A stretch of DNA of 64,000 bases from Candidatus Marinacidobacterales bacterium. GTDB lineage: Bacteria > Acidobacteriota > Vicinamibacteria > Marinacidobacterales > DATDRI01. The notes under the pieces were generated by a model. That model saw only the letters and a program-made list of their open reading frames with translations. It was not told the DNA's origin and searched no databases. A program made the translations under genes and the position numbers. The first letter of the stretch is position 1, and every line of letters starts with the position of its first letter. Below, in pieces: positions 40,083 through 62,808 of the stretch. The stretch lies in assembly GCA_965226495.1 (NCBI GenBank), contig OZ245365.1, positions 768,001 to 832,000 of the forward strand, written 5' to 3'.

Positions 40083-40134
40083 TAAGCAGGGTGCACAGGA
40101 TTTCACGGCACCCTGCGCGAAGAGCCATCAGCTG

Positions 40135-40415
40135 GACGGCGGTGGGGGTGGGGCCCCGCCGCACTAAGTAAGGAGCGAGCCCGCGTGGTGGCCGCCAAAC
40201 TAGGTGGTTGCTGAAGCTCGACGTGGCCAGGCGGCGGGCCGACAACAGGTGCGCCGAGCGGAGCCGTCAGCTGTCTCGCAGCCGCTTGTCGGCGAAGGGA
40301 CGAGCCGTGGGGGTGGGGCCCCGCGGCATTGATGAGAGCCCTCAGCCCGAGCGCAGCGTGAGCGAAGCGAGCCGCGAAGCGAGAGCCGTGGGGGTGGGGC
40401 CCCGCGGCACTCATC
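40135..40415. repeat. Cluster of three GTGGGGGTGGGGCCCC hairpin elements
   Basis: Copies at ~40142, ~40307 and ~40388. Confidence 0.85.
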
Positions 40416-40441
40416 AAAGACTGAGCGCGCATTGAGGCATA

Positions 40442-41209: not shown

Positions 41210-41865
41210 GCGTCGGTTTCCCTCTTTGGTTGTCTTTGCGGGTGGCTTTCGCCGCGCTCGCGGTGATCGTACCCATCGGGCTCGTGCTCGGATATCTTCA
41301 GGCGCGTCGCGATTACCCAGGTCGTGCACTGGTGGACGTCTTGATCGTGCTCCCCATCGTCCTGCCGCCGTCGGTGACCGGCTACTATTTGATCTTGCTT
41401 CTGGGCCGGAACGGGGTCATCGGCGGGCCGCTCTATGAGCTCTTGGGCGTCTCGATCATATTCACCTTCTGGGCTGCCGTTATTGCCGCGGTAGTCGTTG
41501 CTTTGCCGCTCTTCATCAAGTTTGCGCAAGCTGCATTCAACGGAGTGGATCCGGAGTTGGAAGCGGTGGCGAGAACGCTGGGCGCTGGGCCGATCGCAAC
41601 TTTTTTTCGAGTGACGGTCCCCGTGGCCTGGCGCGGATTAGTAGCGGGAGCGGTGCTTTGCTTCGCTCGGGCCCTGGGCGAGTTCGGTGCGACGCTCATG
41701 TTCGCAGGCAACATACCCGGGAAGACCAACACCATGACGCTCGAGATCTGGAGCTCGTACCAGGCCGGAGATGACGCGCGGGCGGTGATGCTTGTCGCGA
41801 CGCTAACCGTCGTCTCCGTCGCGGTGGTACTGGCGTTCTCGCGGTTGGAAAGAGGGCGATGGTGA
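41206..41865 (+). CDS. modB: Molybdate ABC transporter permease
   Basis: LPIVLPPSVTGY, FARALGEFGATLMFAGNIPG.T. Confidence 0.93.
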   Translation: MSVGFPLWLSLRVAFAALAVIVPIGLVLGYLQARRDYPGRALVDVLIVLPIVLPPSVTGYYLILLLGRNGVIGGPLYELLGVSIIFTFWAAVIAAVVVALPLFIKFAQAAFNGVDPELEAVARTLGAGPIATFFRVTVPVAWRGLVAGAVLCFARALGEFGATLMFAGNIPGKTNTMTLEIWSSYQAGDDARAVMLVATLTVVSVAVVLAFSRLERGRW

Positions 41866-42569
41866 CGGAAACGCCGAAGGTTCTCGACGTGAATGTGACG
41901 ATCCCTCTGGGCTCAGGGCGTGAGCGCACCACCGTCGCGGCCCGGTTTGCGCTGACGAAGGGAATCCTGGTCATCTTCGGCCCTTCCGCGACCGGCAAGA
42001 CCCTGACGGTTCGCGCCGTGGCCGGCCTACGACCCGCTATTGGCGCGATTCGCGTGGGCGGCGAGACTCTTCTCGACAGCGAAGCGCAACGAAACGTTGC
42101 CCCGGAACATCGCCGTGTTGGTTATGTGCCCCAACACGTGGCGCTCTTCCCACATCTCAATGTTCGTGACAACGTGGCGTTTGGCTTGCGGGCGCGTGGA
42201 AACGGAACCGGCTCGCGGCCACTCGCCGAGGAATGGCTGGCGCGACTCGGGGTGGAGAACTTGGCGGATCGTATGCCGCATCGCCTGTCGGGAGGGGAAT
42301 CGCAACGCGTCTCGCTCGCCCGCGCCTTGGCACCAGAGCCACGCCTGCTACTACTCGACGAGCCCTTCGCCAGTCTCGATCTCACGACTCGGCGCGAGAT
42401 GCGCCGCGTGGTGCGGGAAGTTCAAGAGAGCAGCGGGATCCCAATGGTTTTCGTTACCCATAGTCCGCGCGAAGCGATCGAGATGGGGGATCACTTGGTT
42501 CGCTACGGGCTGGGTGGAAGCCAAGAAGAAGGCTTGCCGGGGGACCTCATCGAAAGCGAATCGGAATAG
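41859..42569 (+). CDS. modC: Molybdate ABC transporter ATP-binding protein (short, no TOBE domain)
   Basis: GPSATGKT, LSGGE, LLLDEPF; follows modB. Confidence 0.85.
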   Translation: MVTETPKVLDVNVTIPLGSGRERTTVAARFALTKGILVIFGPSATGKTLTVRAVAGLRPAIGAIRVGGETLLDSEAQRNVAPEHRRVGYVPQHVALFPHLNVRDNVAFGLRARGNGTGSRPLAEEWLARLGVENLADRMPHRLSGGESQRVSLARALAPEPRLLLLDEPFASLDLTTRREMRRVVREVQESSGIPMVFVTHSPREAIEMGDHLVRYGLGGSQEEGLPGDLIESESE

Positions 42570-42572
42570 GCG

Positions 42573-42989
42573 TTAAGCGGCGTCGAAGAATTCCCCGATC
42601 TTGCCCCGGATCTGATCGCGGATGCGCCGGAACTCCTGGCGAATCTCTTCGTCGGAGCCGGTGGCCGCCGCCGGATCTTCGAAGGGCCAGTGAAACCGTT
42701 GCACGTTCCCCGGGTATACCGGGCACACTTCCTCGGCACAGAGCGTGATCACCGTCCCGATTCGATCCGAAGGGATCTCGTCGATCGCCTTCGATCGGTG
42801 CGAGGAAATCTCGATGCCCAGTTCCTGCATCACTTCTCGGGCAAATGGATTGAGGTGGGTGGGTGCCGAGCCGGCGCTGTAGATTTCTCGATCCTTGGGC
42901 GCAACCGCTCGAGCGAGTCCCTCCGCCATCTGGCTGCGGGCGGAATTGGCCACACAGAGAAAGAGGACACCCGTCGGTGAATCTGCCAT
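42573..42989 (-). CDS. arsC: Thioredoxin-dependent arsenate reductase (LMW-PTP family)
   Basis: CVANSARSQMAEG, TLC..E.CP, HWPFEDPA. Confidence 0.88.
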   Translation of the reverse strand: MADSPTGVLFLCVANSARSQMAEGLARAVAPKDREIYSAGSAPTHLNPFAREVMQELGIEISSHRSKAIDEIPSDRIGTVITLCAEEVCPVYPGNVQRFHWPFEDPAAATGSDEEIRQEFRRIRDQIRGKIGEFFDAA

Positions 42990-43101
42990 GGCGGTATTCT
43001 AAACGAAAACACTCAGGGCTTGATGAAGGCGTCGGCGGCGGCAATCCACGACGAGCCCCGCCAAAGTCTGCATACCTGTCAGGGCTCGATCTTTGCCCAC
43101 C

Positions 43102-43459
43102 TATCGCTCAGCAAGGGAGGTTTTCGATGGCGGTTCTCGTCTCCATCCCCTATGGACCTACGAAACCGTAAAGGGCGTGTGGGAAGAGCGCTTCGAGCGC
43201 ACCTACGGTTTCTGGCGAGGGCTCTCAGATGCCTCCGTCGCCAAGTATCTCGATTGTAGCCTTTTCGAATCAGGTTTCGTTCGCGTCATGTGCCGAACTG
43301 CAAAGCCGAGTTCCTCGTAGGCTTCTCGTGCAAGTGTAGGGGACTTTATCCATCTTGTGGCGCGAAGCGAACAGCGAGCCTATCGACCGGCTCGAGTTTC
43401 TCGCCCGAGTGCTCATCCACATCCCAGAGCCCAACAAGCATCTGGTTCATTTCTATGGC
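43102..43459 (+). mobile_element. IS91/ISCR-like element, internally deleted derivative (variant B, 5' part)
   Basis: 5' end resembles 60442; encodes WEERFERTYGFWRG..ESGF..SCKCRG..SCGAKR joined directly to DRLEFLARVLIHIP. Confidence 0.8.
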
Positions 43460-43639
43460 TGTCGTTCATCATTATTAAGCCGCCGGAACCGGAGGCCGTT
43501 CGGCTCGACGAGTGGGGACTGAAAGCGTGGTCGACGCACCCGGAAGGCTTCAGGGATCGCACCGCGAATGGGTTCATCCGCTGGACAACGTATACCTCAA
43601 GAGGTCCGGTCACGCACCATCTGGCCGCCGAAAACTGCT

Positions 43640-44689
43640 CTAAGCTGCCTCGTGCCATTCGTAGCGATGGTGCAGCCCGCCCACTCTCGGAAGCGCAACG
43701 ACTTTTGCGGTCGGTGACGGTCGCGGCGTGACCGATCTCTCGTTCGGCGAGTCTTTGTCGAGTCCCAGGTGACAACGATCCTCGTGATAATAGTCGATGT
43801 AGGACCGGGCGAGTCGGACGAGGTGCCGCTCGCTCAGGACGACGACGCGTTCGAGCATCTCTCGACGACAACTACCGATCCAGCGCTCAGCGGTTCCGTT
43901 TTGCCAGGGGCTGAGAAAAGACGTGCGAACCGGACTCGTTCCCATCGACTTGATGACTTCGACGACGGCCTCGCTGAAGATCGAATCGCGATCGAAGACC
44001 AGATATCGCGGTGCCGTGTCGTATGGAAGCGCGTTACGAAGTTGCTGAATCACCCACGCCGACGTCGGGTTGAAGGTCGGGTTGAAGTGCAAGATATGGC
44101 GACGGCCGTGCTCGATGACGAAGAACCCGTACAGCAGCCGAAGAGACGCGGTCGGGACTGTGAACAGATCCATCGCAACGATGTCGTCCTTGTGGTTATG
44201 CAAGAACGCTACCCATCGCTTCACCTGGTCGGGCTCGGTTGGACGCCGCGGCAAGTATCGCGACACCGTCATCTCGGAGACGATGAAACCGAGCTTCGTG
44301 AGCTCCGCGTGGATGCGCGGTGCGCCCCAACCATCCTGAGCCATCGTCCGGATGAGCCGGCGAATCTCGCCATCCACTCGAGGTCGTCCCAGATAACGCC
44401 TCCGCGAGATCTTTGCCCAGTATCGTCGGAATCGATCCCGATTTCACCGCGCGACCGTGTCCGCGTTGACGATGACCAAGCGACTAGCCCACCCGGGCCA
44501 CGATTGGCGGAGCGCCACCCAGAATTCGCGGTCGGCGTTGTCGAGGAGAGGCCGGGGTCGCTCCTTCTTGAGCATAGCAACCTGTTGCCGTAGCGCGAGG
44601 TTTTCAATCACGAGGTCGGCTCGCCGCCGACACATCGCCCGGATCGCGCGGGCGCCAAGAGACACGAGGACGATGAGAACACGGAGCAT
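43640..44689 (-). pseudogene. Integrase-core (rve) DDE transposase with one in-frame stop
   Basis: ENLALRQQ, WGAPRI..EL.KLG, DLFTV, DRDSIF, PWQNG.AER, GGLHHRY; TGA at 44444-44446 where Trp is expected. Confidence 0.8.
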
Positions 44690-44869
44690 GATGCGGCGGA
44701 GTTTGCCCTCTCCCGCGCGTGATCTCAAGCGGGAAATCCGCCGTCCGGTCGGCACAAGAAGAACTCGTAGGTCCTTGGTTTCACTCGCGGACGAGTTTTG
44801 ATGATGGACAACGCGTTCGGGTGAACTGATGGCCTGAACTTCTGGGCGCGCACGTCCGCCTGGCCGATA

Positions 44870-44946
44870 TATGTCGATAAAAATAGATTTTGGCGACATA
44901 TATTGTTGATATGTCGCTCGGAGCGACATAAGCTTCGGATATGTCG
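44870..44946. promoter_or_regulatory. Array of five TATGTCG boxes, putative Fic operator
   Basis: TATGTCG at 44870, 44910, 44940; CGACATA at 44894, 44924; palindrome TATGTCGCTC-G-GAGCGACATA. Confidence 0.6.
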
Positions 44947-46071
44947 CAAGAACCGAATTCGAGCGACCTGAATCGTTGGCGTCCTGACCGGCCTTACAAT
45001 AGGTTACCCCACCTTCCACCCGCGATAGAGCTAGAGACAAAAGCCGTTCTTAGACAGTGTATTACGGCCCGGGCTGCGCTCGCCGGGCTGCGCCATGCGG
45101 CGGAGCTGATCCCGAATCCGAGCATGCTCATCAACACGTTGCCGATATTGGAGGCCCAGGCCAGCACAGAAATCGAGAACATCGTCACTACCGCTGACGC
45201 ACTGTTCCGGCACCTTCACGGTGAGGGGCCGATGGACCGAGCGACGCGGGAAGCCCTGCGGTACCGGGAGGCACTACTGAACGCCTTTGCGTCGATGAAG
45301 ACTCGCCCATTGTCCACCCGAACGGCCGAATCCATCTGCACTCGCATCCGGGGTGTCGAGATGAGGGTTCGTAGGGTGCCCGGCACGGCGCTCGCAAACG
45401 TCGCCACTGGCGAGGTCATTTATACGCCACCCGAGGGCGAACACTTGTTACGGAACCTGATGGCCAACTGGGAGCGCTTCGTGCACGACGAGAGCTCACT
45501 CGATCCTCTCGTTCGCATGGCGGTGGCCCATTATCAGTTCGAAGCCATCCATCCTTTCACGGATGGCAACGGCCGTACCGGTCGCGTGTTGAACAGTCTG
45601 TTTCTCGTCGAGAATGAGCTGCTCGGACTTCCCATTCTCTACCTGAGTCGATACATCATCGAACGGAAGGCTGAATACCAACGCCTGCTTCTGCAGGTCA
45701 CGCGAAACGACACCTGGGAGCCGTGGCTCCTGTATTTGTTACGTGCAGTCGAAGAAACCGCCGAGTGGACCGTCGCCAAGATCGCGGCCGTCCGAGAGCT
45801 CGCAAGTCACACGAGCGACTACGTGCGTCAGGCGCTACCGAAGATCTACACACGCGAGCTCATCGACGTCATTTTTGAACAGCCCTATTGCCGAATTGGC
45901 AACCTCGTCGCCGCCGGCGTCGCGAAGCGTCAAGCGGCCTCTCGTTATCTCAAGGCACTCGTCAAGACCGGGGTTCTGCGCGAAGAGGTTTCGGGGCGAC
46001 AGAAACTATTCGTCCATCCGAAACTCCTGAGGCTCTTGACGGAGGGAAGCAACGAGCTCGTGCGGTACTAA
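44941..46071 (+). CDS. fic: Fic family protein adenylyltransferase (class II) with C-terminal wHTH
   Basis: HPFTDGNGRTGR catalytic motif; inhibitory STEIEN motif; C-terminal RQAASRYLK.L...G.L. Confidence 0.9.
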   Translation: MSQEPNSSDLNRWRPDRPYNRLPHLPPAIELETKAVLRQCITARAALAGLRHAAELIPNPSMLINTLPILEAQASTEIENIVTTADALFRHLHGEGPMDRATREALRYREALLNAFASMKTRPLSTRTAESICTRIRGVEMRVRRVPGTALANVATGEVIYTPPEGEHLLRNLMANWERFVHDESSLDPLVRMAVAHYQFEAIHPFTDGNGRTGRVLNSLFLVENELLGLPILYLSRYIIERKAEYQRLLLQVTRNDTWEPWLLYLLRAVEETAEWTVAKIAAVRELASHTSDYVRQALPKIYTRELIDVIFEQPYCRIGNLVAAGVAKRQAASRYLKALVKTGVLREEVSGRQKLFVHPKLLRLLTEGSNELVRY

Positions 46072-46383: not shown

Positions 46384-46819
46384 TCACGCCGCGTCTCGAT
46401 AGTAATATCGGAGCGTTCCGCCGAGGCGCTCCCGACATCGGATGCGACCGTCGGACCCCAGCGAATCCTGCGCCGAGCAGATGAGTTCGTTATCGAGACC
46501 TTGATGATTCCTCTCCAGATGATAATGGGCGACGAAAGCGCGGATACTCACGCGGAGATGATTCTCTCCCAAGGGAATCATCCGACTAAGGCACTCGCTT
46601 TTCATGGACCGCACAAAGCGTTCGGCGTAGGCGTTCAAATTCGGACTCCTCGCCGGCAGCTTCACCGTCTCCACGCCGACAGCACCGAGTGTGGCGCAGA
46701 ATGATGCTGAAAAGAGCGGGTCCCGGTCGTGAATGAGAAACCGCGCGTCTCGAAGAAAACCGTCAATGGCGTCGGTCAGGTTTCTGGCCACTTGCCTCAT
46801 CCAATCGTCGTAGGGCTGG
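46384..46819 (-). pseudogene. Integrase-core transposase, C-terminal fragment
   Basis: LIHDRD, PARSPNLNAYAERFV, ERNHQGL, RLGG.L.YY; 5' end cut by an IS91 piece. Confidence 0.8.
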
Positions 46820-47745
46820 AACCCTCATATTCATGCCATCGTCACGCGTGGGGTTTTCCTCTCTAACGGACAGTGGCATCCCATCCCTTACGTCGATACG
46901 CACAAAGCCGAGCTTGTCTTTCGCCATAAGCTTCTCCGATTTCTACGAGACCGGGACCTAATTTCCGAAGAGCGCATCGACCTGCTCCTTTCTTGGCAAC
47001 ATTCCGGTTTCAGCGTTCACAATCACACCACCGTTTATCCCAGCGACACCGAAGGGCTCCATCGCCTCGCTTGCTACTTGCAACGCGCGCCAGTGAATCT
47101 GTCTCGACTTCGTTATCATCCGGAATCGGGGCTCCTTATTTATGAGCCCAAGGCCGGCCACGATGTCGACGACAGCGAGCCTATCGACCCACTTGAGTTT
47201 ATCGCGCGCGTGCTCATCCACATACCGGAGCCGAAAAAGCATCTGGTTCATTTCTACCGGACCTACGCCAACCGCGTTCGTTCGTCGACACCCAGTGTTT
47301 GCGACTCCGCGCAGAAGCAGGCAGAGGATGAACCTTCCCCTCCCCGCCGTGCTTTACGAAAAAGATGGTCAGAGCTTATTTACAAAATCTACGAAGTCGA
47401 CCCTTTGACCTGTCGGCAATGCGGGAATCAGATGAAGATCGTCGCTTTCATCACTGAGCCCGCCGTCATTTGTCGTATTTTGGCTCACCGCAAATACAAA
47501 GCCTCCCGACAAAGAGCTCCTCCCCAGCCAACCCTCAACCTCCACTAAACGCCTACCCCGTCAGGACACACTCTCCCTGTGTCTTGAACCAGCCAACGGC
47601 CTTCGTCCTCGCGACGCCGGCCACCTCGCGAGGCCTTTCTCTCTCGCAACACGTTCGATTTATTTCAAACCATCCCGCGTACGAGGATTTTCCTTCAATC
47701 TAGCCCTCCCGCAGGTTGCTCTCGGGATAGAAATGGCTATCTGTT
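46820..47745 (+). mobile_element. IS91/ISCR-like element, 3' half with conserved end
   Basis: Open frame NPHIH (HUH)...HSGFSV...ACYLQR...DPLTC..CG..MKIVAFI; ends AGAAATGGCTATCTGTT. Confidence 0.88.
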
Positions 47746-48052
47746 ATCTGTCTTCTATGATGAGCGCATCCACGTCCGGCGCTGGCTTGTCCTCGGCTTG
47801 AAAGGAGCCCACGTCGCCGCTGTGGGCGCCATCTTCGGTGGGGCAGAACGCCCTCAAGTGGTCAAGGTGACCGGAAGACGGATTGCGATCCACCTCAGGC
47901 TGCTCTACGATTCGAACCCAGGAGATGATCGGCACGACAAAAAACTCAGAGTCCAGAAGTCAGAAGTCTCGACGGGGGAGGTTGTCGCCGATTCTGACTT
48001 CTGAATTCAGCCGGCCGCCAGGCCGGCATTCTGGGTTTCGTCAAGAAGAAAC

Positions 48053-55909: not shown

Positions 55910-56060
55910 AACGGCCTTCGTCCTCCCGACGCCGGCCACCTCGCGAGGCCTTTCTCTCTCGCAACGCCTTCGATTTATTTCAAACCATCCCGCGTACGAG
56001 GATTTTCCTTCAATCTAGCCCTCCCGCAGGTTGCTCTCGGGATAGAAATGGCTATCTGTT
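55910..56060 (+). mobile_element. Isolated 3' end (~150 bp) of the IS91-like element
   Basis: Near-identical to 47595-47745 and 56833-56983. Confidence 0.88.
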
Positions 56061-56066
56061 ATCTGT

Positions 56067-56983
56067 AGTTCCTCGTCGCTTTCTCATGCAGGTGTCGGGG
56101 ACTCTGTCCGTCTTGTGGCGCGAAGCGAGCCGCGATTTTCGCCGAGTTGCTCCAACACAGGATTCTCGCGGATGTGCCTCACGCTCAATGGGTGTTCTCG
56201 ATCCCGAAAATGTTGAGACCATATTTTTTGTACCATCGAGAGCTTCTAGGTGATCTCGCAAGACTCGCCTACGAAACCGTCCGGGAGATGATGGCCGCTG
56301 CCGTCGATGAGCCTGACGCACGCCCTGGTAGTGAATCTGTCTCGACTTCGTTATCATCCGGAATCGGGGCTCCTTATTTATGAGCCCAAGGCCGGCCACG
56401 ATGTCGACGACAGCGAGCCTATCGACCCACTTGAGTTTATCGCGCGCGTGCTCATCCACATACCGGAGCCGAAAAAGCATCTGGTTCATTTCTACCGGAC
56501 CTACGCCAACCGCGTTCGTTCGTCGACACCCAGTGTTTGCGACTCCGCGCAGAAGCAGGCAGAGGATGAACCTTCCCCTCCCCGCCGCGCTTTACGAAAA
56601 AGATGGTCAGAGCTTATTTACAAAATCTACGAAGTCGACCCTTTGACCTGTCGGCAATGCGGGAATCAGATGAAGATCGTCGCTTTCATCACTGAGCCCG
56701 CCGTCATTTGTCGTATTTTGGCTCACCGCAAATACAAAGCCTCCCGACAAAGAGCTCCTCCCCAGCCAACCCTCAACCTCCACTAAACGCCTACCCCGTC
56801 AGGACACACTCTCCCTGTGTCTTGAACCAGCCAACGGCCTTCGTCCTCCCGACGCCGGCCACCTCGCGAGGCCTTTCTCTCTCGCAACGCCTTCGATTTA
56901 TTTCAAACCATCCCGCGTACGAGGATTTTCCTTCAATCTAGCCCTCCCGCAGGTTGCTCTCGGGATAGAAATGGCTATCTGTT
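56067..56983 (+). mobile_element. IS91-like element, 5'-truncated and internally deleted
   Basis: 56067-56330 matches ~60756-61019; the rest matches ~47092-47745; HUH and catalytic Tyr region removed. Confidence 0.88.
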
Positions 56984-57102: not shown

Positions 57103-58035
57103 ATGTTGATGAGATTCGTGGGCATTCTTGTTTTTATCAGTGCTGCGAGTGCGTTTGCGGAGGAATCCTGTGAACCATCGAGGTGGGGACCAGACGACCA
57201 AATGGGTAACGCTAACCTCATCTCCCCGGAATCTGTGCTGAAAGCCTCCAGTCTCATTAAAACTGGCAAAACGTACGGCCTTGGAATAACCATCGACAGC
57301 AACACGCCCGCTTTTGCACCTCGCAGCTTGTCGTTGATGGTCGTGCAGCCAGGACAACAGGAAGGTGCCCGGCCATTCGGAATCAACACCTACAATGACG
57401 ACATATTTTTTGGCTGGTTTGGTATTGGATCGCAGATCGATGGCCTGGGTCATCTGGGTTACGACGGCGACTATTACAACTGTAACCGGTCCGAAGATTT
57501 TGCGCAGTTGACCGGATTGACGAAGCTGGGAATCGAAAACGTCCCACCCATCGTTGCTCGCGGGGTCGTGCTGGATATGGCGAGCCATTTTGGCGTCGAT
57601 GTTATGGAAGCTGGAAAGTACTTCTCGGTAGAAGACGTTAAAGCGGTAGCCCGGAAACAAAAAACACCGATTCGCGAAGGGGATGTGGTGTTGTTTCACA
57701 CGGGATGGACAGACGCATACCTGGATTCGGATCCTGCGACCTGGGTTGCTGCCGAGCCAGGGCAATCCGAGGAAGTTGCCCAATATCTTGCGGACTTAAA
57801 CGTGGTTGCCGTGGGGGCTGATACCTGGGGAGTTGACGTCGTGCCGCCTCAGGTGGCTGCTCGCCCGTATCAGGGTCACGTGATTCTGCTGAAAGAAAAC
57901 GGAATCTACATTCTGGAAACCATGAATACCGGACCGCTGGTTCGGGATGAAGCTTACGAGTTTCTTTTTGTCCTGGGTCAAGCGAAAGTGCGCGGCGCGG
58001 TTCAAATGATCATAAACCCAATTGCAATTCATTAA
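57103..58035 (+). CDS. Secreted cyclase-family (kynurenine formamidase-like) metallohydrolase
   Basis: Signal peptide; RWG.DD.MG..N, GSQIDGLGH, RGVVLD, GDVVLFHTGW, GADTW, GIYILE. Confidence 0.85.
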   Translation: MLMRFVGILVFISAASAFAEESCEPSRWGPDDQMGNANLISPESVLKASSLIKTGKTYGLGITIDSNTPAFAPRSLSLMVVQPGQQEGARPFGINTYNDDIFFGWFGIGSQIDGLGHLGYDGDYYNCNRSEDFAQLTGLTKLGIENVPPIVARGVVLDMASHFGVDVMEAGKYFSVEDVKAVARKQKTPIREGDVVLFHTGWTDAYLDSDPATWVAAEPGQSEEVAQYLADLNVVAVGADTWGVDVVPPQVAARPYQGHVILLKENGIYILETMNTGPLVRDEAYEFLFVLGQAKVRGAVQMIINPIAIH

Positions 58036-59332
58036 CTTTTCAAACGTTCTTCTCTGAGCGCTTTGCGACGCAACTTGCCCGCATCATCCCGCAACGGTTG
58101 ACTGACAAATTCTATTGTTCGCGGAATTTTGTATCGTACCAGGCGCTCGGCAAGATGATTGAGGTGGTTGTCTTCAGTCAGTTTTCCATCAGGCGCATCG
58201 ACTATTGCATGCACTGTGGCTCCGAGATCATCACTTGGTAGGCCAATGACGGCAGACGAGCGTACGCCGGTACAGGAATCAATCGCTGCCTCAACCTCTG
58301 CCGGGTAGACGTTTGCCCCACCGGAAAGAATCATGTCGGTGAGGCGATCCGATAGAAACAGGTAACCGTCGATGTCCATATGCCCGATGTCCCCGAGACT
58401 CTCCCAACCGCCTTCCATGACTTTTGCTTCCGCGCCGATGTAACGATAGGTGGTGCCGGCACCACTTTTCGGTCGGATGAACACCTCGCCGATTTCACCT
58501 GGGGGTAAAGTTTTGCCGTTTTCGTCGACGATTTTCATTTCGCACATCGCCGTGGGTTTCCCAACAGAACCGCGGTGTGCAAGCCATTCGACGCCGTCCA
58601 GAATCGTAGATCCAGTGCCTTCCGTGCCGCCGTAGAGTTCCCAAATGACTTCGGGACCCAACCAGTCGATGAAGGCTTCCTTCAGCCAGATCGGGCAGGG
58701 TGCAGCGAGATGCCATAACGTTCGTAGGGAAGATAGGTCATAGCGTAACCGCACGTCCGTCGGTAGATTCCAGACACGCTGCATCATTGTGGGCACCATG
58801 TAGATCGTGTCCACACTCAGAGTTTCGATGAGTTGTAATGTTTGCTCCGCATCAAAACGAGTTGTGATGGCTACCTGGTTACCTTTGCCCAGTGCCCCCA
58901 TCGCCCACATGAATGGCCCGTTGTGATACAGCGGACCGGGAATCAACACGGAGCCTTCTTTCCGGAAATTCAGAATTTCGGCATCGGGATCAGTGGTGGC
59001 CGGATGTTTCGAAACGATGAGTTTGGGGCGTCCAGTGCTGCCGCCGGAAGTCATTGCTTTGTAGGAAGTGGCGGTGAGTTCTTCCAGAGGATCGTCCGCA
59101 ATGGATACGTCGGGTTCGTACTGGGGTGGAACGGTTGTTATTTCACCATACTCGCCGGGATTCACGCCGACAATGAGTTTTGGGGCGCCGATTTCTACGA
59201 TCTGGTCGAGTTCGAATTTGGGCAGTTTGGCGGAAACCGGCTGTGGTGTGCCGCCCAGTTTCCAGGTGGCATAACACGCCGTAAAAAATTCAATGCTGTT
59301 GGATAGAGCAATCGTCACGAAATCGTCGAAGC
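58032..59332 (-). pseudogene. AMP-binding acyl-CoA ligase, 5'-truncated by an IS91 piece
   Basis: TSGGSTGRPK, YGGTE, GD, SGGANVYPAE, GKLRR; the ORF N-terminus is antisense IS sequence. Confidence 0.8.
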
Positions 59333-59793
59333 TTCCTCGTAGGCTTCTCGTGCAAGTGTAGGGGACTTTATCCATCTTGTGGCGCGAAGCGAACAGCGAG
59401 CCTATCGACCGGCTCGAGTTTCTCGCCCGAGTGCTCATCCACATCCCAGAGCCCAACAAGCATCTGGTTCATTTCTATGGCGCCTATGCCAACCGCGTTC
59501 GTTCGTCAGCACCGCGTGTCAGCGACTCTGCGGAGAAGCAGGGAGAAGATGAACCTTCTCCTGAGCGGCGCCGATTGCGAAAACGATGGCCCGAGCTTAT
59601 CTACAAAATCTACGAGGTCGACCCCTTAACCTGCCGGCCATGACGGTCATCGACGCCTCGATGCCGTCCCGGCGGCGATGCTTTTTTGCCTCACCATATG
59701 TTTGACCAAATTCGAAACGCTCCGCGTGCGAAGAATTTGCTTCAATCTAGCCGTCCCACCGACTGCTCCTCGGGATAGAAATGCCTATCTGTT
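59333..59793 (+). mobile_element. IS91-like deleted derivative (variant B, 3' part)
   Basis: 59333-59481 identical to 43311-43459; ends CGGGATAGAAATGCCTATCTGTT. Confidence 0.85.
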
Positions 59794-59869
59794 CGCGGAG
59801 GGGCTGGAAGCTGCGCATGAGAAGGGGATTGACAGGAGTCCATTGTCCTTGTGCATCCCAAACCCCACG

Positions 59870-60026
59870 AGAGGCGAGGAGCATGGGGGTGTTGGTTCAC
59901 AACACTCCCAAACGTCTGTGGGACCACAACGACTCCGGGACGGGCGTGGGGACCGCCGACGGCTTCGGCCATCAACTCCTTGATGGTCTCATAAGCAAGG
60001 CGGGCCGGATCACCGAGAAGCTCTCG
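59870..60026 (-). mobile_element. Fragment of a divergent IS91-like transposase
   Basis: [49 protein letters not shown] aligns with the 60491 ORF. Confidence 0.75.
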
Positions 60027-60040
60027 CTATCTGTTCCGCG

Positions 60041-60271
60041 GCGCTGAACCCCGTCCTCACCGTGGGCGATCAAGTCGCGGAGCCTCTTCGCGTCCACCAA
60101 GGCCTGAATCGACGACAGGCTTTGGAGAGGGCGGTCGAGCTCTTTCGCGCGGTGCGCATCCCCGACGCAGAGTCGCGGGTGGACGACTACCCCCACCCAA
60201 TGAGCGGGGGGATGAAGCAACGGGTCTTGATCGCCATGGCCATCGCCTGTTCCCCCGATCTTCTGGTTGCT
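60041..60271 (+). pseudogene. Internal fragment of an oligopeptide ABC ATPase (DppD/OppD-like)
   Basis: [13 protein letters not shown]...[28 protein letters not shown]. Confidence 0.85.
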
Positions 60272-60441
60272 TTTCTTCGTCGTGACGGCGGACCACGGCG
60301 AAAGCATGACCGAGCATGATTTTTTCTTCTGGCATGGCACGTACGCTTACCAGTCCGTTGTGCGAGTCCCGCTAATCTTCTATTTCCCCAAGGGAAAGCT
60401 GACCGGCAGAAGCTCGGTTCCAGCGAGCCTCGTGGATGTCA
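60272..60441 (+). pseudogene. Internal fragment of a sulfatase-fold gene
   Basis: [12 protein letters not shown]...HG...Y...VRVPLIF...SLVDV. Confidence 0.8.
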
Positions 60442-61221
60442 TATCGCTCCCCAGGGAGGTTTTCGATGACGGACTTCGTCTCCATCCTCTATGGACACCG
60501 TGGCGGCAACTCCTGCCATCGTCCCGCCAAAGGACGACTGTCCACCCGTTTATCGCCCGCGAAACCCACGCGCAAGCTCTCTTTACCAACTCTTCGACTC
60601 ACATTACGAAACCGTCAAGGCCGTGTGGGAAGAGCGATTCGAGCGCCAGTACGGGTTTTGGCGAGGCCACTGGGATTCCGCCGTGGCCACCTACCAAGAC
60701 TGCGGTTTGTTCGAATCCGGTTTCGCTCGCGTCAGGTGCCCGAGCTGCAAATTCGAGTTCCTCGTCGCTTTCTCATGCAGGTGTCGGGGACTCTGTCCGT
60801 CTTGTGGCGCGAAGCGAGCCGCGATTTTCGCCGAGTTGCTCCAACACAGGATTCTCGCGGATGTGCCTCACGCTCAATGGGTGTTCTCGATCCCGAAAAT
60901 GTTGAGACCATATTTTTTGTACCATCGAGAGCTTCTAGGTGATCTCGCAAGACTCGCCTACGAAACCGTCCGGGAGATGATGGCTGCTGCCGTCGATGGG
61001 CCTGACGCACGCCCTGGTATGGTCGCCGTCATCCAAACGTTTTCGTCTTCTCTAAAATTCAACCCTCATATTCATGCCATCGTCACGCGTGGGGTTTTCC
61101 TCTCTAACGGACAGTGGCATCCCATCCCTTACGTCGATACGCACAAAGCCGAGCTTGTCTTTCGCCATAAGCTTCTCCGATTTCTACGAGACCGGGACCT
61201 AATTTCCGAAGAGCGCATCGA
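60442..61221 (+). mobile_element. IS91/ISCR-like element, 5' half (Zn-binding domain plus HUH), 3'-truncated
   Basis: YRPR.P..S.LY, GFARVRC..C, FSCRCRGLCPSCG, QWVFSIPK, NPHIH; 61061-61221 matches 46820-46980. Confidence 0.9.
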
Positions 61222-61224
61222 GCG

Positions 61225-61625
61225 AGCTCGTCTCTACTCTTCGCGGCATCCTGCATGTAGTGGGCATGGGCATCATAGTAATGAGCGTTTGAGAGGTGTT
61301 CCCCTTCCTTCACCAGCACCGCTCCAGACCCGTAGGGTAGGAAGAGACCCTTGTGAGGATCTATCACTATCGAGTGAGAGCGATCCATGCCGAGGAGGAT
61401 CTTATTTTCCTTCTTCGCATAGCGCGAAAAGCGCTCCGTAGGCGCCGTCGATGTGGAACCAGAGAGAATGCCGGCCGGCGATTTCACCTATGTCCCCGAG
61501 GGGATCCACCGCGCCGGTGTCGGCGCTTCCCGCGGAAGCGATGACGAGCCAGGGGCTCAGTCCGGCGGCCTTGTCCTTCTGGATCGTCTTCACGAGGGCC
61601 TCGGGGTCCATCCGACGACGTGCGT
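61225..61625 (-). pseudogene. Internal frameshifted fragment of a PLP-dependent aromatic amino acid decarboxylase
   Basis: ASAG..DTGAVDPL, WFHIDGAYG, DPHKGLFLPYGSG. Confidence 0.8.
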
Positions 61626-61710
61626 CCGGGTCCAAGATTTTGCGAATCAAGGTGTTCTCGGTGATGAAGGCGACGATACGCATCCGGCCCCCGCATTGGT
61701 TACAGGTCAA
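61625..61710 (-). mobile_element. Fragment of a divergent IS91-like transposase C-terminus
   Basis: LTCNQCGGRMRIVAFITENTLIRKILD resembles LTCRQCGNQMKIVAFITEPAVICRIL. Confidence 0.7.
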
Positions 61711-61711
61711 T

Positions 61712-61905
61712 CGGATCAATCCGCAGGGTGATGTTGCCCATGGACGATCCGAGGTACAGAAGCAGTACGAGACGATCTTTGCCAATCGCACAGCAAATCC
61801 ATCGGCTCAACCGTTTCACGCTGACATCACCATTCGTTTTCTGAGACCAGACGTCGCCTTTCTCGACGGTAAATGGCAAGTAGACAGTCCGGACGGCAAA
61901 AGTCT
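61712..61905 (+). pseudogene. Fragment of an NTF2-like (SgcJ/DUF4440) gene
   Basis: INPQG....GR.E....Y..IF...IRFLRPDVAFLDGKW. Confidence 0.6.
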
Positions 61906-61914
61906 CGGTTCCTG

Positions 61915-62808
61915 TTACGGCTTTGCCGGGCTCTCACCGTTCGTGGTAACCGCCAGGGGTCGCACCGGAGAAGAATTCCAGCCGCGGGATCGCATCGCCT
62001 TTTCGAGCTCCGCAATCCGGAGGTTCGCCGGGGGGTGCGAGCGAAAGTATTCCCTCGGTCCTTCCGCCACGACCCTTCCCATCTCATCCACTGGCGTCGA
62101 AGCAGGTTGGTTGGGTCGACCCTCGTTCTCGCCGAGGCGCCGGTAGAGATCGATGGCTCCCTGCGGGGAATAGCCCGCCGCCACCGCATAGCCCAACCCC
62201 ACGAGGTCCGCCTCCAGCTCTTTTTCCTTGTTGTACCCCGCTTGAAAGAGAGTTATCGGAATCGAAGCAATCGCATGTGGCAAAGACAAACCGAGCTTGC
62301 GCGCAGCAAGCGCATACTGGAGCCTTTCGATGGCGTGACGACGGTCCACATGCGCGATCTCATGACCTAGGACGGCTGCCATCTCGTCCTCCGATTCCAT
62401 TGCGTCGTAGAGTCCTCTGAGTATGATCACCTGACCGCCCGGCAGGGCGAAGGCGTTCATCGCAGACCTCGCCTGAACATGGAAGTGATAAGGGATGCGG
62501 TTTCTGTCTACTTGCGCCGCAAGGCGCTTCCCAACTTGCCGAGCGTAAGCCTCGAGCGCGCGGTCGTTTTCCGTCCCTGCGCTCCTTTTCAGGCCGTACC
62601 GCTGTGCCAAGCGGCGGCCAACCTCTTCTTCCTCCTGATCGCTGACGCGGGTTGCGGTTAGTGGCAATCTCTCTGCTTGACGCTGAAAGTCCGCCACCAG
62701 GCGCATCACCGCACCAAGCCCGACCACTGTATCCCCCTGCCCACGCTCGGTGAGATAGACACCGCCCAGCAGTGCCGCCAGAACAAGCGCCATCGCGACT
62801 TTGCGCAT
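61915..62808 (-). CDS. M48 family metallopeptidase
   Basis: NAFALPGG, VLGHEIAH, E.EAD..G, SHP. Confidence 0.9.
   Translation of the reverse strand: MRKVAMALVLAALLGGVYLTERGQGDTVVGLGAVMRLVADFQRQAERLPLTATRVSDQEEEEVGRRLAQRYGLKRSAGTENDRALEAYARQVGKRLAAQVDRNRIPYHFHVQARSAMNAFALPGGQVIILRGLYDAMESEDEMAAVLGHEIAHVDRRHAIERLQYALAARKLGLSLPHAIASIPITLFQAGYNKEKELEADLVGLGYAVAAGYSPQGAIDLYRRLGENEGRPNQPASTPVDEMGRVVAEGPREYFRSHPPANLRIAELEKAMRSRGWNSSPVRPLAVTTNGESPAKP

Follow-up and report, generated by a model that had tools for sequence, protein, structure and literature searches.

Gene scraps strung between IS91-family fragments in an acidobacterial genome: probable debris of one-ended transposition and deletion

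Layout of the mosaic

We examined a 64,000-nt stretch of contig OZ245365.1 from a Candidatus Marinacidobacterales bacterium (G000:C1:768001-832000), hereafter called the window, in which a 2.6 kb mosaic of short host-gene fragments and pieces of IS91-family insertion sequences (IS) is flanked by an AMP-ligase gene and a peptidase-like gene (Table 1). The order of the pieces was derived from BLASTN against the own genome, blastx against its own open reading frames (ORFs) and Pfam, the last covering 21 of 71 stop-to-stop ORFs; by these three methods the verified pieces abut with 0 to 10 nt between them. An earlier reading of the letters alone, referred to below as the original prediction, had described a string of eight fragments; seven of them were confirmed by the same methods, whereas the NTF2-like piece is a weak lead only, with no Pfam match even at an E value of ≤10 and an Atlas score of 0.90 for SnoaL_3/DUF4440 on 157 shared features, under the guide value of 170.

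Table 1. Pieces and borders of the mosaic, followed by related element copies elsewhere in the window (window coordinates)
Feature	Position	Strand	Basis or remark
AMP-dependent ligase gene	58032..59332	-	5' end cut by the string; left mosaic border
Copy S, miniature IS91-family copy with complete right end	59333..59792	+	BLASTN, Pfam
Ser/Thr-kinase scrap, 12 codons AEGLEAAHEKGI, right after the ori end of S	59793..59830	+	BLASTN
IS91B scrap (second IS91 lineage), about aa 218-286, frameshifted	59831..60026	-	BLASTN, blastx
Solo footprint CTATCTGT, last 8 nt of the element right end	60027..60034	+	Octamer count
DppD/OppD-type ATP-binding cassette (ABC) ATPase scrap, 78 codons, open frame, signature motif region included	60035..60270	+	ABC_tran
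Sulfatase scrap, about 57 codons, ...VTADHGE...	60271..60440	+	Pfam Sulfatase
Copy R, 5' half of an IS91-family element, subfamily A1, open frame	60441..61221	+	Zn_Tnp_IS91 and Y2_Tnp
Group II pyridoxal phosphate (PLP)-decarboxylase scrap, about aa 209-352, one frameshift, 6-nt indel	61222..61634	-	Pyridoxal_deC
C-terminal zinc-ribbon scrap of a third IS91-family copy	61632..61715	-	BLASTN and translation CNQCGGRMRIVAFITENTLIRKILD
Candidate NTF2-like (SnoaL/DUF4440) piece	61727..61905	+	Atlas lead only
Intact 297-aa peptidase-like ORF	61915..62808	-	Right mosaic border
Copy T, left part of subfamily A2	43102..43459	+	Interrupted at 43460 by a different IS
Copy Q, 3' 926 nt of subfamily A1, complete right end and repeated terminal heptamer	46820..47745	+	
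Copies P0 and P	55910..56983	+	P0 = 151-nt right-end piece plus T and ATCTGT

Pfam matches identified the ABC ATPase scrap (ABC_tran, E 2.4e-8, ORF 59984-60316, plus strand), the sulfatase scrap (E 3.7e-7 on the ORF and 1.3e-6 for the piece alone, at 28.4 bits against a cut-off of 25), copy R (Zn_Tnp_IS91, 3.6e-16, and Y2_Tnp, 2.7e-9, ORF 60470-61438, plus strand), copy S (C-terminal part of Y2_Tnp, 2.5e-5, ORF 59362-59640, plus strand) and the decarboxylase scrap (Pyridoxal_deC, 2e-12, ORF 61405-61806, minus strand; a second minus-strand ORF, 61107-61487, gave 0.002, under the cut-off). The remaining pieces were placed by BLASTN in the own genome, where the kinase bit (59793-59831) is 87% identical over 39 nt to 6045325-6045287 (E 5.7e-5), the IS91B scrap (59831-60028, minus strand) is 92% identical to 3797514-3797312 and 90% to 1915528-1915732, and the third IS91 bit (61632-61676, minus strand) is 84% identical over 45 nt to 1348740, 3281771 and 3798163. 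Three IS91 lineages are present in the string, each as pieces only. In an open frame of 316 codons at 60491-61441, the transposase half with the zinc-binding and HUH parts, which lacks the catalytic tyrosines, is fused with 73 codons read antisense to the decarboxylase.

Both borders fall in accessory DNA. On the left, the 432-aa translation of the ligase gene aligns to the 479-583 aa ORFs of relatives only from residue ~95, at 26-37% identity, and this homology ends at ~59332, at the start of copy S. On the right, the 297-aa ORF, which we take to be an M48-type peptidase from its HEIAH motif, has best matches of just 33-37% identity in G001, G002, G003 and G007. In these four genomes the flanking genes are matched at only 26-37% identity, which indicates that the region is accessory; no relative was found with the full genes in the order of the string, although the four closest genomes offer no orthologous locus for the comparison. 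Counts over relatives include the unpublished genome G007, and no statement rests on G007 alone. Co-linear string pieces were absent from 40 other genomes and from 54 other genomes.

Spanning sequence, on which the original prediction made the reality of the string depend, was found in public data. The IS91B/footprint/DppD, DppD/sulfatase and sulfatase/R joins (J3, J4 and J5) as well as J7 and J8 recur, with 0-1 differences, in Logan contigs of four runs, each from a different study. None of the public runs listed as holders of this sequence (X1-X18) was an RNA run. Under a rule of 31 letters on each side of a junction, the first three joins are bridged by X1 record 3 (59831-60634), X3 record 12 (59977-60634) and X5 record 27 (59977-60469), and the decarboxylase/IS91-bit join and the stretch into the peptidase gene by X1 record 8 and X3 record 16 (61546-62000). 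At the R/decarboxylase join, contigs 61192-61567 in X1, X3 and X4 offer 30 letters on the left, one under the rule, as expected from a 31-mer graph at a repeat border. Because contigs from four independent public studies bridge its junctions, the string does not appear to be an assembly artifact: a chimera of this metagenome-derived genome is extremely improbable, even though the region is rich in repeats and contigs can switch at repeats, evident by X1 record 3 running left into genome position 1915498. That variant, in which the IS91B piece extends leftward, matches another IS91B copy and is best read as a contig switch.

The IS91-family element and its junction signatures

By its translation, the element is of the IS91 family with an HUH/Y2 rolling-circle transposase, since a zinc-binding N-terminal domain and an HUH/Y2 catalytic domain, as known from this family, are present (both by Pfam on R, with the C-terminal part on S); NPHIHAIV in the translation of R is presumably the HUH motif. 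Identity of the transposase to any plasmid-borne relative is at most 43.5%, and records of its loci are titled Acidobacteriota, Marinacidobacterales and Vicinamibacteria, with other phyla at lower identity. Intact transposases of this lineage appear to be encoded in loci L061 and L062, which have open frames of 439-449 aa. A copy of 1,538 nt in relative G034 is matched at 83% by R and Q (46981-47745) taken together, which puts the full element at ~1.55 kb. Members of the IS91 family have two different ends that lack terminal inverted repeats, make no target duplication and carry subterminal palindromes at ori and ter. The left and right ends of the present element are unlike each other, the left terminus being defined from only three or four diverged copies. 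The right end reads ...GGGATAGAAATG(G/C)CTATCT (also given as ...GGGATAGAAATGSCTATCT), then GT and next mostly TC or CC. We compared 24 right ends, five of this genome and 19 of four relatives: GT follows directly in 23 as printed, and in the 24th (L044), where the fuzzy match was shifted, TATCT followed by GTTC is seen by eye. The dinucleotide after this GT is TC in 6 ends, CC in 4, CA in 3 and another pair in 11, which points to the GTTC/GTCC target rule of the IS91 family.

According to the accessible part of a report on this family, IS91, IS1294 and IS1294b possess an HUH transposase and distinct ori and ter ends with no inverted repeats, choose targets adjoining ori (GTTC, CTTG and GTCC, with GTAC, CTTC and CTGG as minor ones), and undergo one-ended transposition through termination failure in 1-14% of events, mobilizing adjacent DNA (PMC13181058). 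The element described here likewise has a target tetranucleotide next to ori, although it belongs to a distant acidobacterial lineage, and no orf121 was seen with it. In contrast to IS91 and IS1294, its GT is constant throughout the right ends compared, suggesting that cleavage may occur inside the tetranucleotide (GT^YC).

Most surviving copies are broken. In five relatives, 61 matches, some of them parts of a single interrupted copy, comprise 1 of full length (the query itself), 20 with the right end only, 8 with the left end only and 32 internal ones; an intact right end with variable 5' truncation is common among copies, and the family persists almost only as fragments biased to right-end pieces. 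In the own genome, a stretch of 25 kb (815737-839951) holds all five complete right ends, and the subfamily is found nowhere else in 6.3 Mb; it either hops locally or came with the island. Compared to copies in relatives, R, T and U are 10-45 nt short at the left end. Copy R, which is 99% identical to 56067-56330 and 100% to 46820-46980, is missing ~40-45 nt at the true left (ter) end and all sequence beyond codon 243, its left end being short compared to both relatives' copies and X5 contigs. Copy S, of subfamily A2, is 5'-truncated and internally deleted with a complete right (ori) end, ...GGGATAGAAATGCCTATCTGT; its identity is 100% to window 43311-43459 (149 nt) and 82% to 47172-47421. Copy P, internally deleted and starting at an internal GTTC, follows P0 after one base (A), and the P0/P joint is also present in contigs of X1, X4 and X5. 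The right-end heptamer is reiterated in places, with TATCTGT twice at Q (47737-47751) and at P0 (56052-56066) and TACCTGT three times in a relative (L040, G026), suggesting that the ori end was cut aberrantly, or underwent slippage, more than once.

A transposase-type signature is recognizable at four of the ten junctions, i.e., the start of S, S/kinase, IS91B/DppD and, weakly, DppD/sulfatase. S and P come from separate subfamilies (82% alike) and differ in their flanks, yet they start at the identical internal GTTC; at this point the parent T reads ...CCGA GTTC CTCG, compared to ...GAAGC TTC CTCG in S, and the right end of S (ori, GT) abuts the TC of the kinase scrap. At the IS91B/DppD junction, all three IS91B parent copies continue with CTGG after ...CTCTCG, and the octamer CTATCTGT stands alone between the two scraps. 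The window contains this octamer 6 times where 0.65 would be expected, a count that none of 100 shuffles reached, and four of the six are true right ends; among 69 occurrences in 12.7 Mb (both strands) genome-wide, the only solo copy on a junction is the IS91B/DppD one, and we estimate chance placement on a given junction at the order of 1e-4. All four DppD homologues read CCTTCC (CTTC) where the DppD scrap starts, and this, together with the footprint, makes the join look like an insertion at CT^TC. The right border of the DppD scrap corresponds to GGTTGC (GTTG) in the own homologue, a signature that is weak because G002 and G001 differ there.

Microhomology, which the original prediction had singled out for inspection, amounts to overlaps of only 0-2 nt at the signature-free joins (kinase/IS91B, J5, J6, J7 and the NTF2-like borders). 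Repeats at the junctions are short matches at chance level, and no regular repeats or spacers flank the pieces.

Origin of the scraps and a run-on unit downstream

The DppD scrap is 91% identical to its homologue in G002, 88.6% to the own one (60034-60270 to 4111677-4111913) and 87% to that of G001, with ratios of nonsynonymous to synonymous substitution (dN/dS) of 0.13 (own), 0.27 (G002), 0.25 (G001) and 0.12 (G006), G003 having been dropped as gapped. The decarboxylase scrap is closest to G001 (89%), with 85% identity to the own and G002 homologues (by BLASTN, 61222-61627, minus strand, 85.5% to own 3856035-3855637) and dN/dS of 0.16 (own), 0.13 (G001) and 0.10 (G002). Since the divergence of both scraps is mostly synonymous (dN/dS 0.10-0.27), they must derive from functional genes belonging to another lineage, one that is unsampled. 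Judged from these sequences, the scraps are foreign and not copies of resident genes; the intact donors that the original prediction would have sought in the own genome did not turn up by BLASTN, the resident homologues being just 85-92% identical and a sulfatase donor lacking. The sulfatase scrap has no DNA match in the own genome or in 54 other genomes of the order, and its best protein match among 5.8 billion proteins, an "arylsulfatase A-like" one, is 53% identical. In G001, the homologues of DppD and the decarboxylase are on one contig, ~160 kb apart.

Further scraps of the PLP-decarboxylase, 83-89% identical to the resident gene (3854993-3856615), are located at genome 918498-919137, 1369683-1369820 and 1388809-1388911. 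The first two adjoin IS91-family pieces, the second being directly upstream of a full-length IS91 copy (1370074-1371405), and no IS91 bit was detected beside the third. The scraps near IS91 bits fit hitch-hiking of flanks.

A clear case of flank capture is present 10 kb downstream of the string, at 70338-71958 in coordinates that continue those of the window. This unit begins with GTAC and ends with ...CTATCT followed by GTCC; it carries 1.35 kb of flank that is 98% identical to window 41756-43157 and comprises the 3' end of a modB-like gene, a whole modC-like ATPase gene and an arsC-like gene, fused to a 276-nt mini-element. At 41756-43157, this DNA stands within an intact modA/B/C-like row, and copy T, located after these native modABC-arsC-like genes, is the source of the captured flank. 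The unit lies ~45 nt beyond the 3' end of a gene, and when its two flanks were joined in a script, no gene spanned the joint. Both the upstream flank and the ter-like tetranucleotide border of IS91-family one-ended transposition can be discerned in it, and we infer that it is the expected product of such an event. Seen as a direct repeat, the pair measures 1.4 kb (98%; window 41756-43157 and genome 838338-839739, equivalent to 70338-71739) and flanks ~27 kb.

Products of this kind are known from IS801 of Pseudomonas syringae, for which the portion of the report available describes right-end miniatures of 229, 360 and 679 nt whose left border is a ter-like tetranucleotide, experimentally shown captures of 290, 1017 and 1431 nt of an upstream gene, and many truncated copies beside accessory genes, most of them ascribed to reorganization and not to transposition (PMC3189936). 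The GTTC starts of S and P resemble the starts of the IS801 miniatures. Unlike what that portion describes, the scraps here are chained from several genes, have foreign donors and show a right-end footprint at one border, and they are known from sequence alone. The view in the original prediction that capture of gene fragments would be unusual in a bacterium is at odds with the IS801 experiments (PMC3189936, same portion).

The window and genome hold other repeats and patchworks. The IS that cuts copy T (43460-44810) has about ten genome copies at 78-85% identity, an rve-type integrase scrap (46390-46815) directly abuts copy Q, and a short intergenic repeat family (40085-40440; like repetitive extragenic palindromes or miniature inverted-repeat transposable elements) has dozens of copies of 70-95% identity across the genome. 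A 376-aa ORF (44941-46071) contains HPFTDGNGRTGR, which resembles a Fic-domain motif. Another string adjoins an IS91B bit at genome 1348.4-1349.7 kb; the sole Pfam hit, with 17 of 39 ORFs scanned, was PD40 in a neighboring gene outside that string. At genome 1-13000 (L050), a dense patchwork of ~28 short pieces consists mostly of DDE, rve, Mutator and HTH_Tnp_1 transposases with no IS91 present, which makes IS junkyards a general feature of this genome.

Explanations weighed and their meaning

The string is probably non-functional debris of one-ended IS91-family transposition, truncated copies and deletions in an accessory region. IS91-family elements move by rolling-circle "peel and paste" from the right ori end to the left ter end. 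Copy R may have lost its ter end beside a fragment of a sulfatase gene, so that replication from the ori of R would have had to run on upstream. At that time, the R unit would have occupied a related species' DppD gene in which a further copy, inserted at CT^TC, lay upstream, and read-through would have stopped a few bases inside the ori end of this upstream copy, giving a unit of the CTATCTGT footprint, 236 nt of DppD, 170 nt of sulfatase and R, which may then have inserted into an IS91B copy of inverted orientation. Later, the miniature copy S, arising from a one-ended event that started at an internal GTTC, would have been inserted at CT^TC beside the kinase scrap. Ordinary deletions or illegitimate joins could have removed the 3' half of R and made the kinase/IS91B, sulfatase/R, R/decarboxylase, decarboxylase/IS91-bit and both NTF2-like junctions; the host-gene scraps would have hitch-hiked in from previous sites or hosts. 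For DppD and sulfatase at least, the scraps have the look of cargo upstream of a terminator-less copy, and we infer that DppD, sulfatase and R formed one run-on unit that ended inside an upstream ori end.

Several observations weigh against this account. No transposase signature is present at J2, J5, J6, J7 or either border of the NTF2-like piece, the left border of the IS91B scrap is GACA, and the starts of Q and P0 are unlike GTTC. At the DppD/sulfatase border, G002 has GGTGGC and G001 has GATTGC, neither with GTTG, and the GT^YC cut position is a reading of four junctions. No intact copy or intact transposase of this subfamily is left in the own genome, and although GATAG and CTATC can form a 5-bp pairing at the right end, predicted folds of the end hairpins are no better than those of shuffles (z -0.14 to 1.92). 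A second copy of the DppD-sulfatase-R unit was found neither in the own genome nor in 54 other genomes of the order; a 24-mer across the DppD/sulfatase junction gave 0 matches in genome_contigs and metagenome_contigs, and a 25-mer of footprint plus DppD gave 0 matches in metagenome_contigs, the own record possibly being left out of these sets. As the string is single-copy, movement of DppD-sulfatase-R as a unit is deduced and not seen, and R now lacks the ori end that would have formed the right border of that unit.

The scraps might also form a serial travel log, written in different hosts of the genus, in which each run-on round upstream of R added a piece of the last gene and stopped at a GTTC-like site or inside an upstream ori end. 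We regard this as a rather unlikely extension, covering DppD and sulfatase and perhaps IS91B and kinase; if true, bacteria would have a natural counterpart to the multi-fragment capture of Helitrons, and a new termination rule would be implied, with the ori end as a terminator that leaves a 6-8 nt footprint. Serial capture at every junction was considered and rejected, as J2, the IS91B left border (GACA) and J5-J8 do not fit.

Deletion has a part in any scenario, and that debris from repeated deletions is involved, as the original prediction allowed, is borne out by six of the ten junctions lacking a transposase signature. Could decay in situ account for everything, i.e., an acquired island with intact kinase, DppD, sulfatase, decarboxylase and NTF2-like genes and IS copies that lost DNA by deletion, with no capture at all? 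The accessory nature of the region, with no more than 26-37% matches to the flanking genes in G001, G002, G003 and G007, agrees with this proposal, as does the synonymous bias of divergence, which fits any foreign functional gene, however it arrived. Yet at least nine independent deletions in 2.6 kb would be required, leaving internal pieces of 39-410 nt in mixed orientation; the 8-nt ori footprint exactly at the DppD border, the start of the DppD scrap at the homologues' CTTC and the shared GTTC start of S and P would go unexplained; and the DppD and decarboxylase homologues are far apart in G001. Decay alone is unlikely on this evidence. Decidedly improbable is patchwork filler DNA, in which a double-strand break, perhaps in an IS copy, was mended through end joining or through template switching that copied several short templates in succession, a process proposed for some Helitron captures. 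It would match the abutting of pieces with 0-2 nt overlap, a genome that encodes Ku (164 bits) and the IS91-free patchwork at 1-13 kb, but neither the ori footprint nor the GTTC-type borders would follow from it, and the near-identical donors from the same cell that characterize end-joining filler were not found among the resident homologues, whose divergence and dN/dS are given above. With its templates absent from the genome, including any sulfatase donor, such a patchwork would have arisen in another host.

A dedicated fragment-shuffling or archiving system, which the original prediction had entertained, or a functional chimeric gene or RNA is hardly credible. The appearance of ordered short pieces and the open frame that fuses half a transposase to antisense decarboxylase are all that speak for it, whereas the pieces vary in size and orientation, two of them carry frameshifts, no regular repeats or spacers mark the junctions, the string is single-copy, is not found in relatives and lies outside working element ends, and dead transposases are the only associated machinery.

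Among known systems, ISCR (insertion sequence common region) elements are reportedly IS91-like and without ter, and are said by Toleman and co-workers (2006) to carry neighboring DNA and to build mosaics by successive events. Their cargo consists of whole resistance genes in clinical bacteria, whereas the string holds short dead scraps in an environmental genome, and although R, T and U are short at the left end, they are dead copies and not a defined ter-less lineage. Helitrons have a Rep-helicase fusion and their own end and target rules. The likening of the string to Helitron capture in the original prediction stands insofar as IS91-family elements are bacterial cousins of Helitrons and a 1.35 kb flank was captured 10 kb downstream; it fails on the helicase, since no helicase domain was found in the 21 ORFs scanned (only Zn_Tnp_IS91 and Y2_Tnp), and on internal, amplified cargo. 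Eukaryotic Helitrons are rolling-circle HUH transposons that gain gene fragments by reading past their terminator, as stated in the part of a publication that was available (PMC4778049). Helitron cargo is internal and is amplified with the element, compared to a single-copy string situated between the right end of S and the truncated left end of R.

We consider the chained, foreign, footprint-marked cargo to be a natural example of known IS91-type behavior rather than a novel type of system. The string preserves a clean record from nature of IS91-type elements breaking up and moving host DNA between genomes, in a phylum that is poorly studied. For annotation, short open foreign-looking gene scraps beside pieces of Y2 transposases are to be treated as transposition debris and not as novel genes. 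If the footprint reading holds, an upstream ori end may stop run-on replication, which would bear on how Helitron and ISCR mosaics are assembled.

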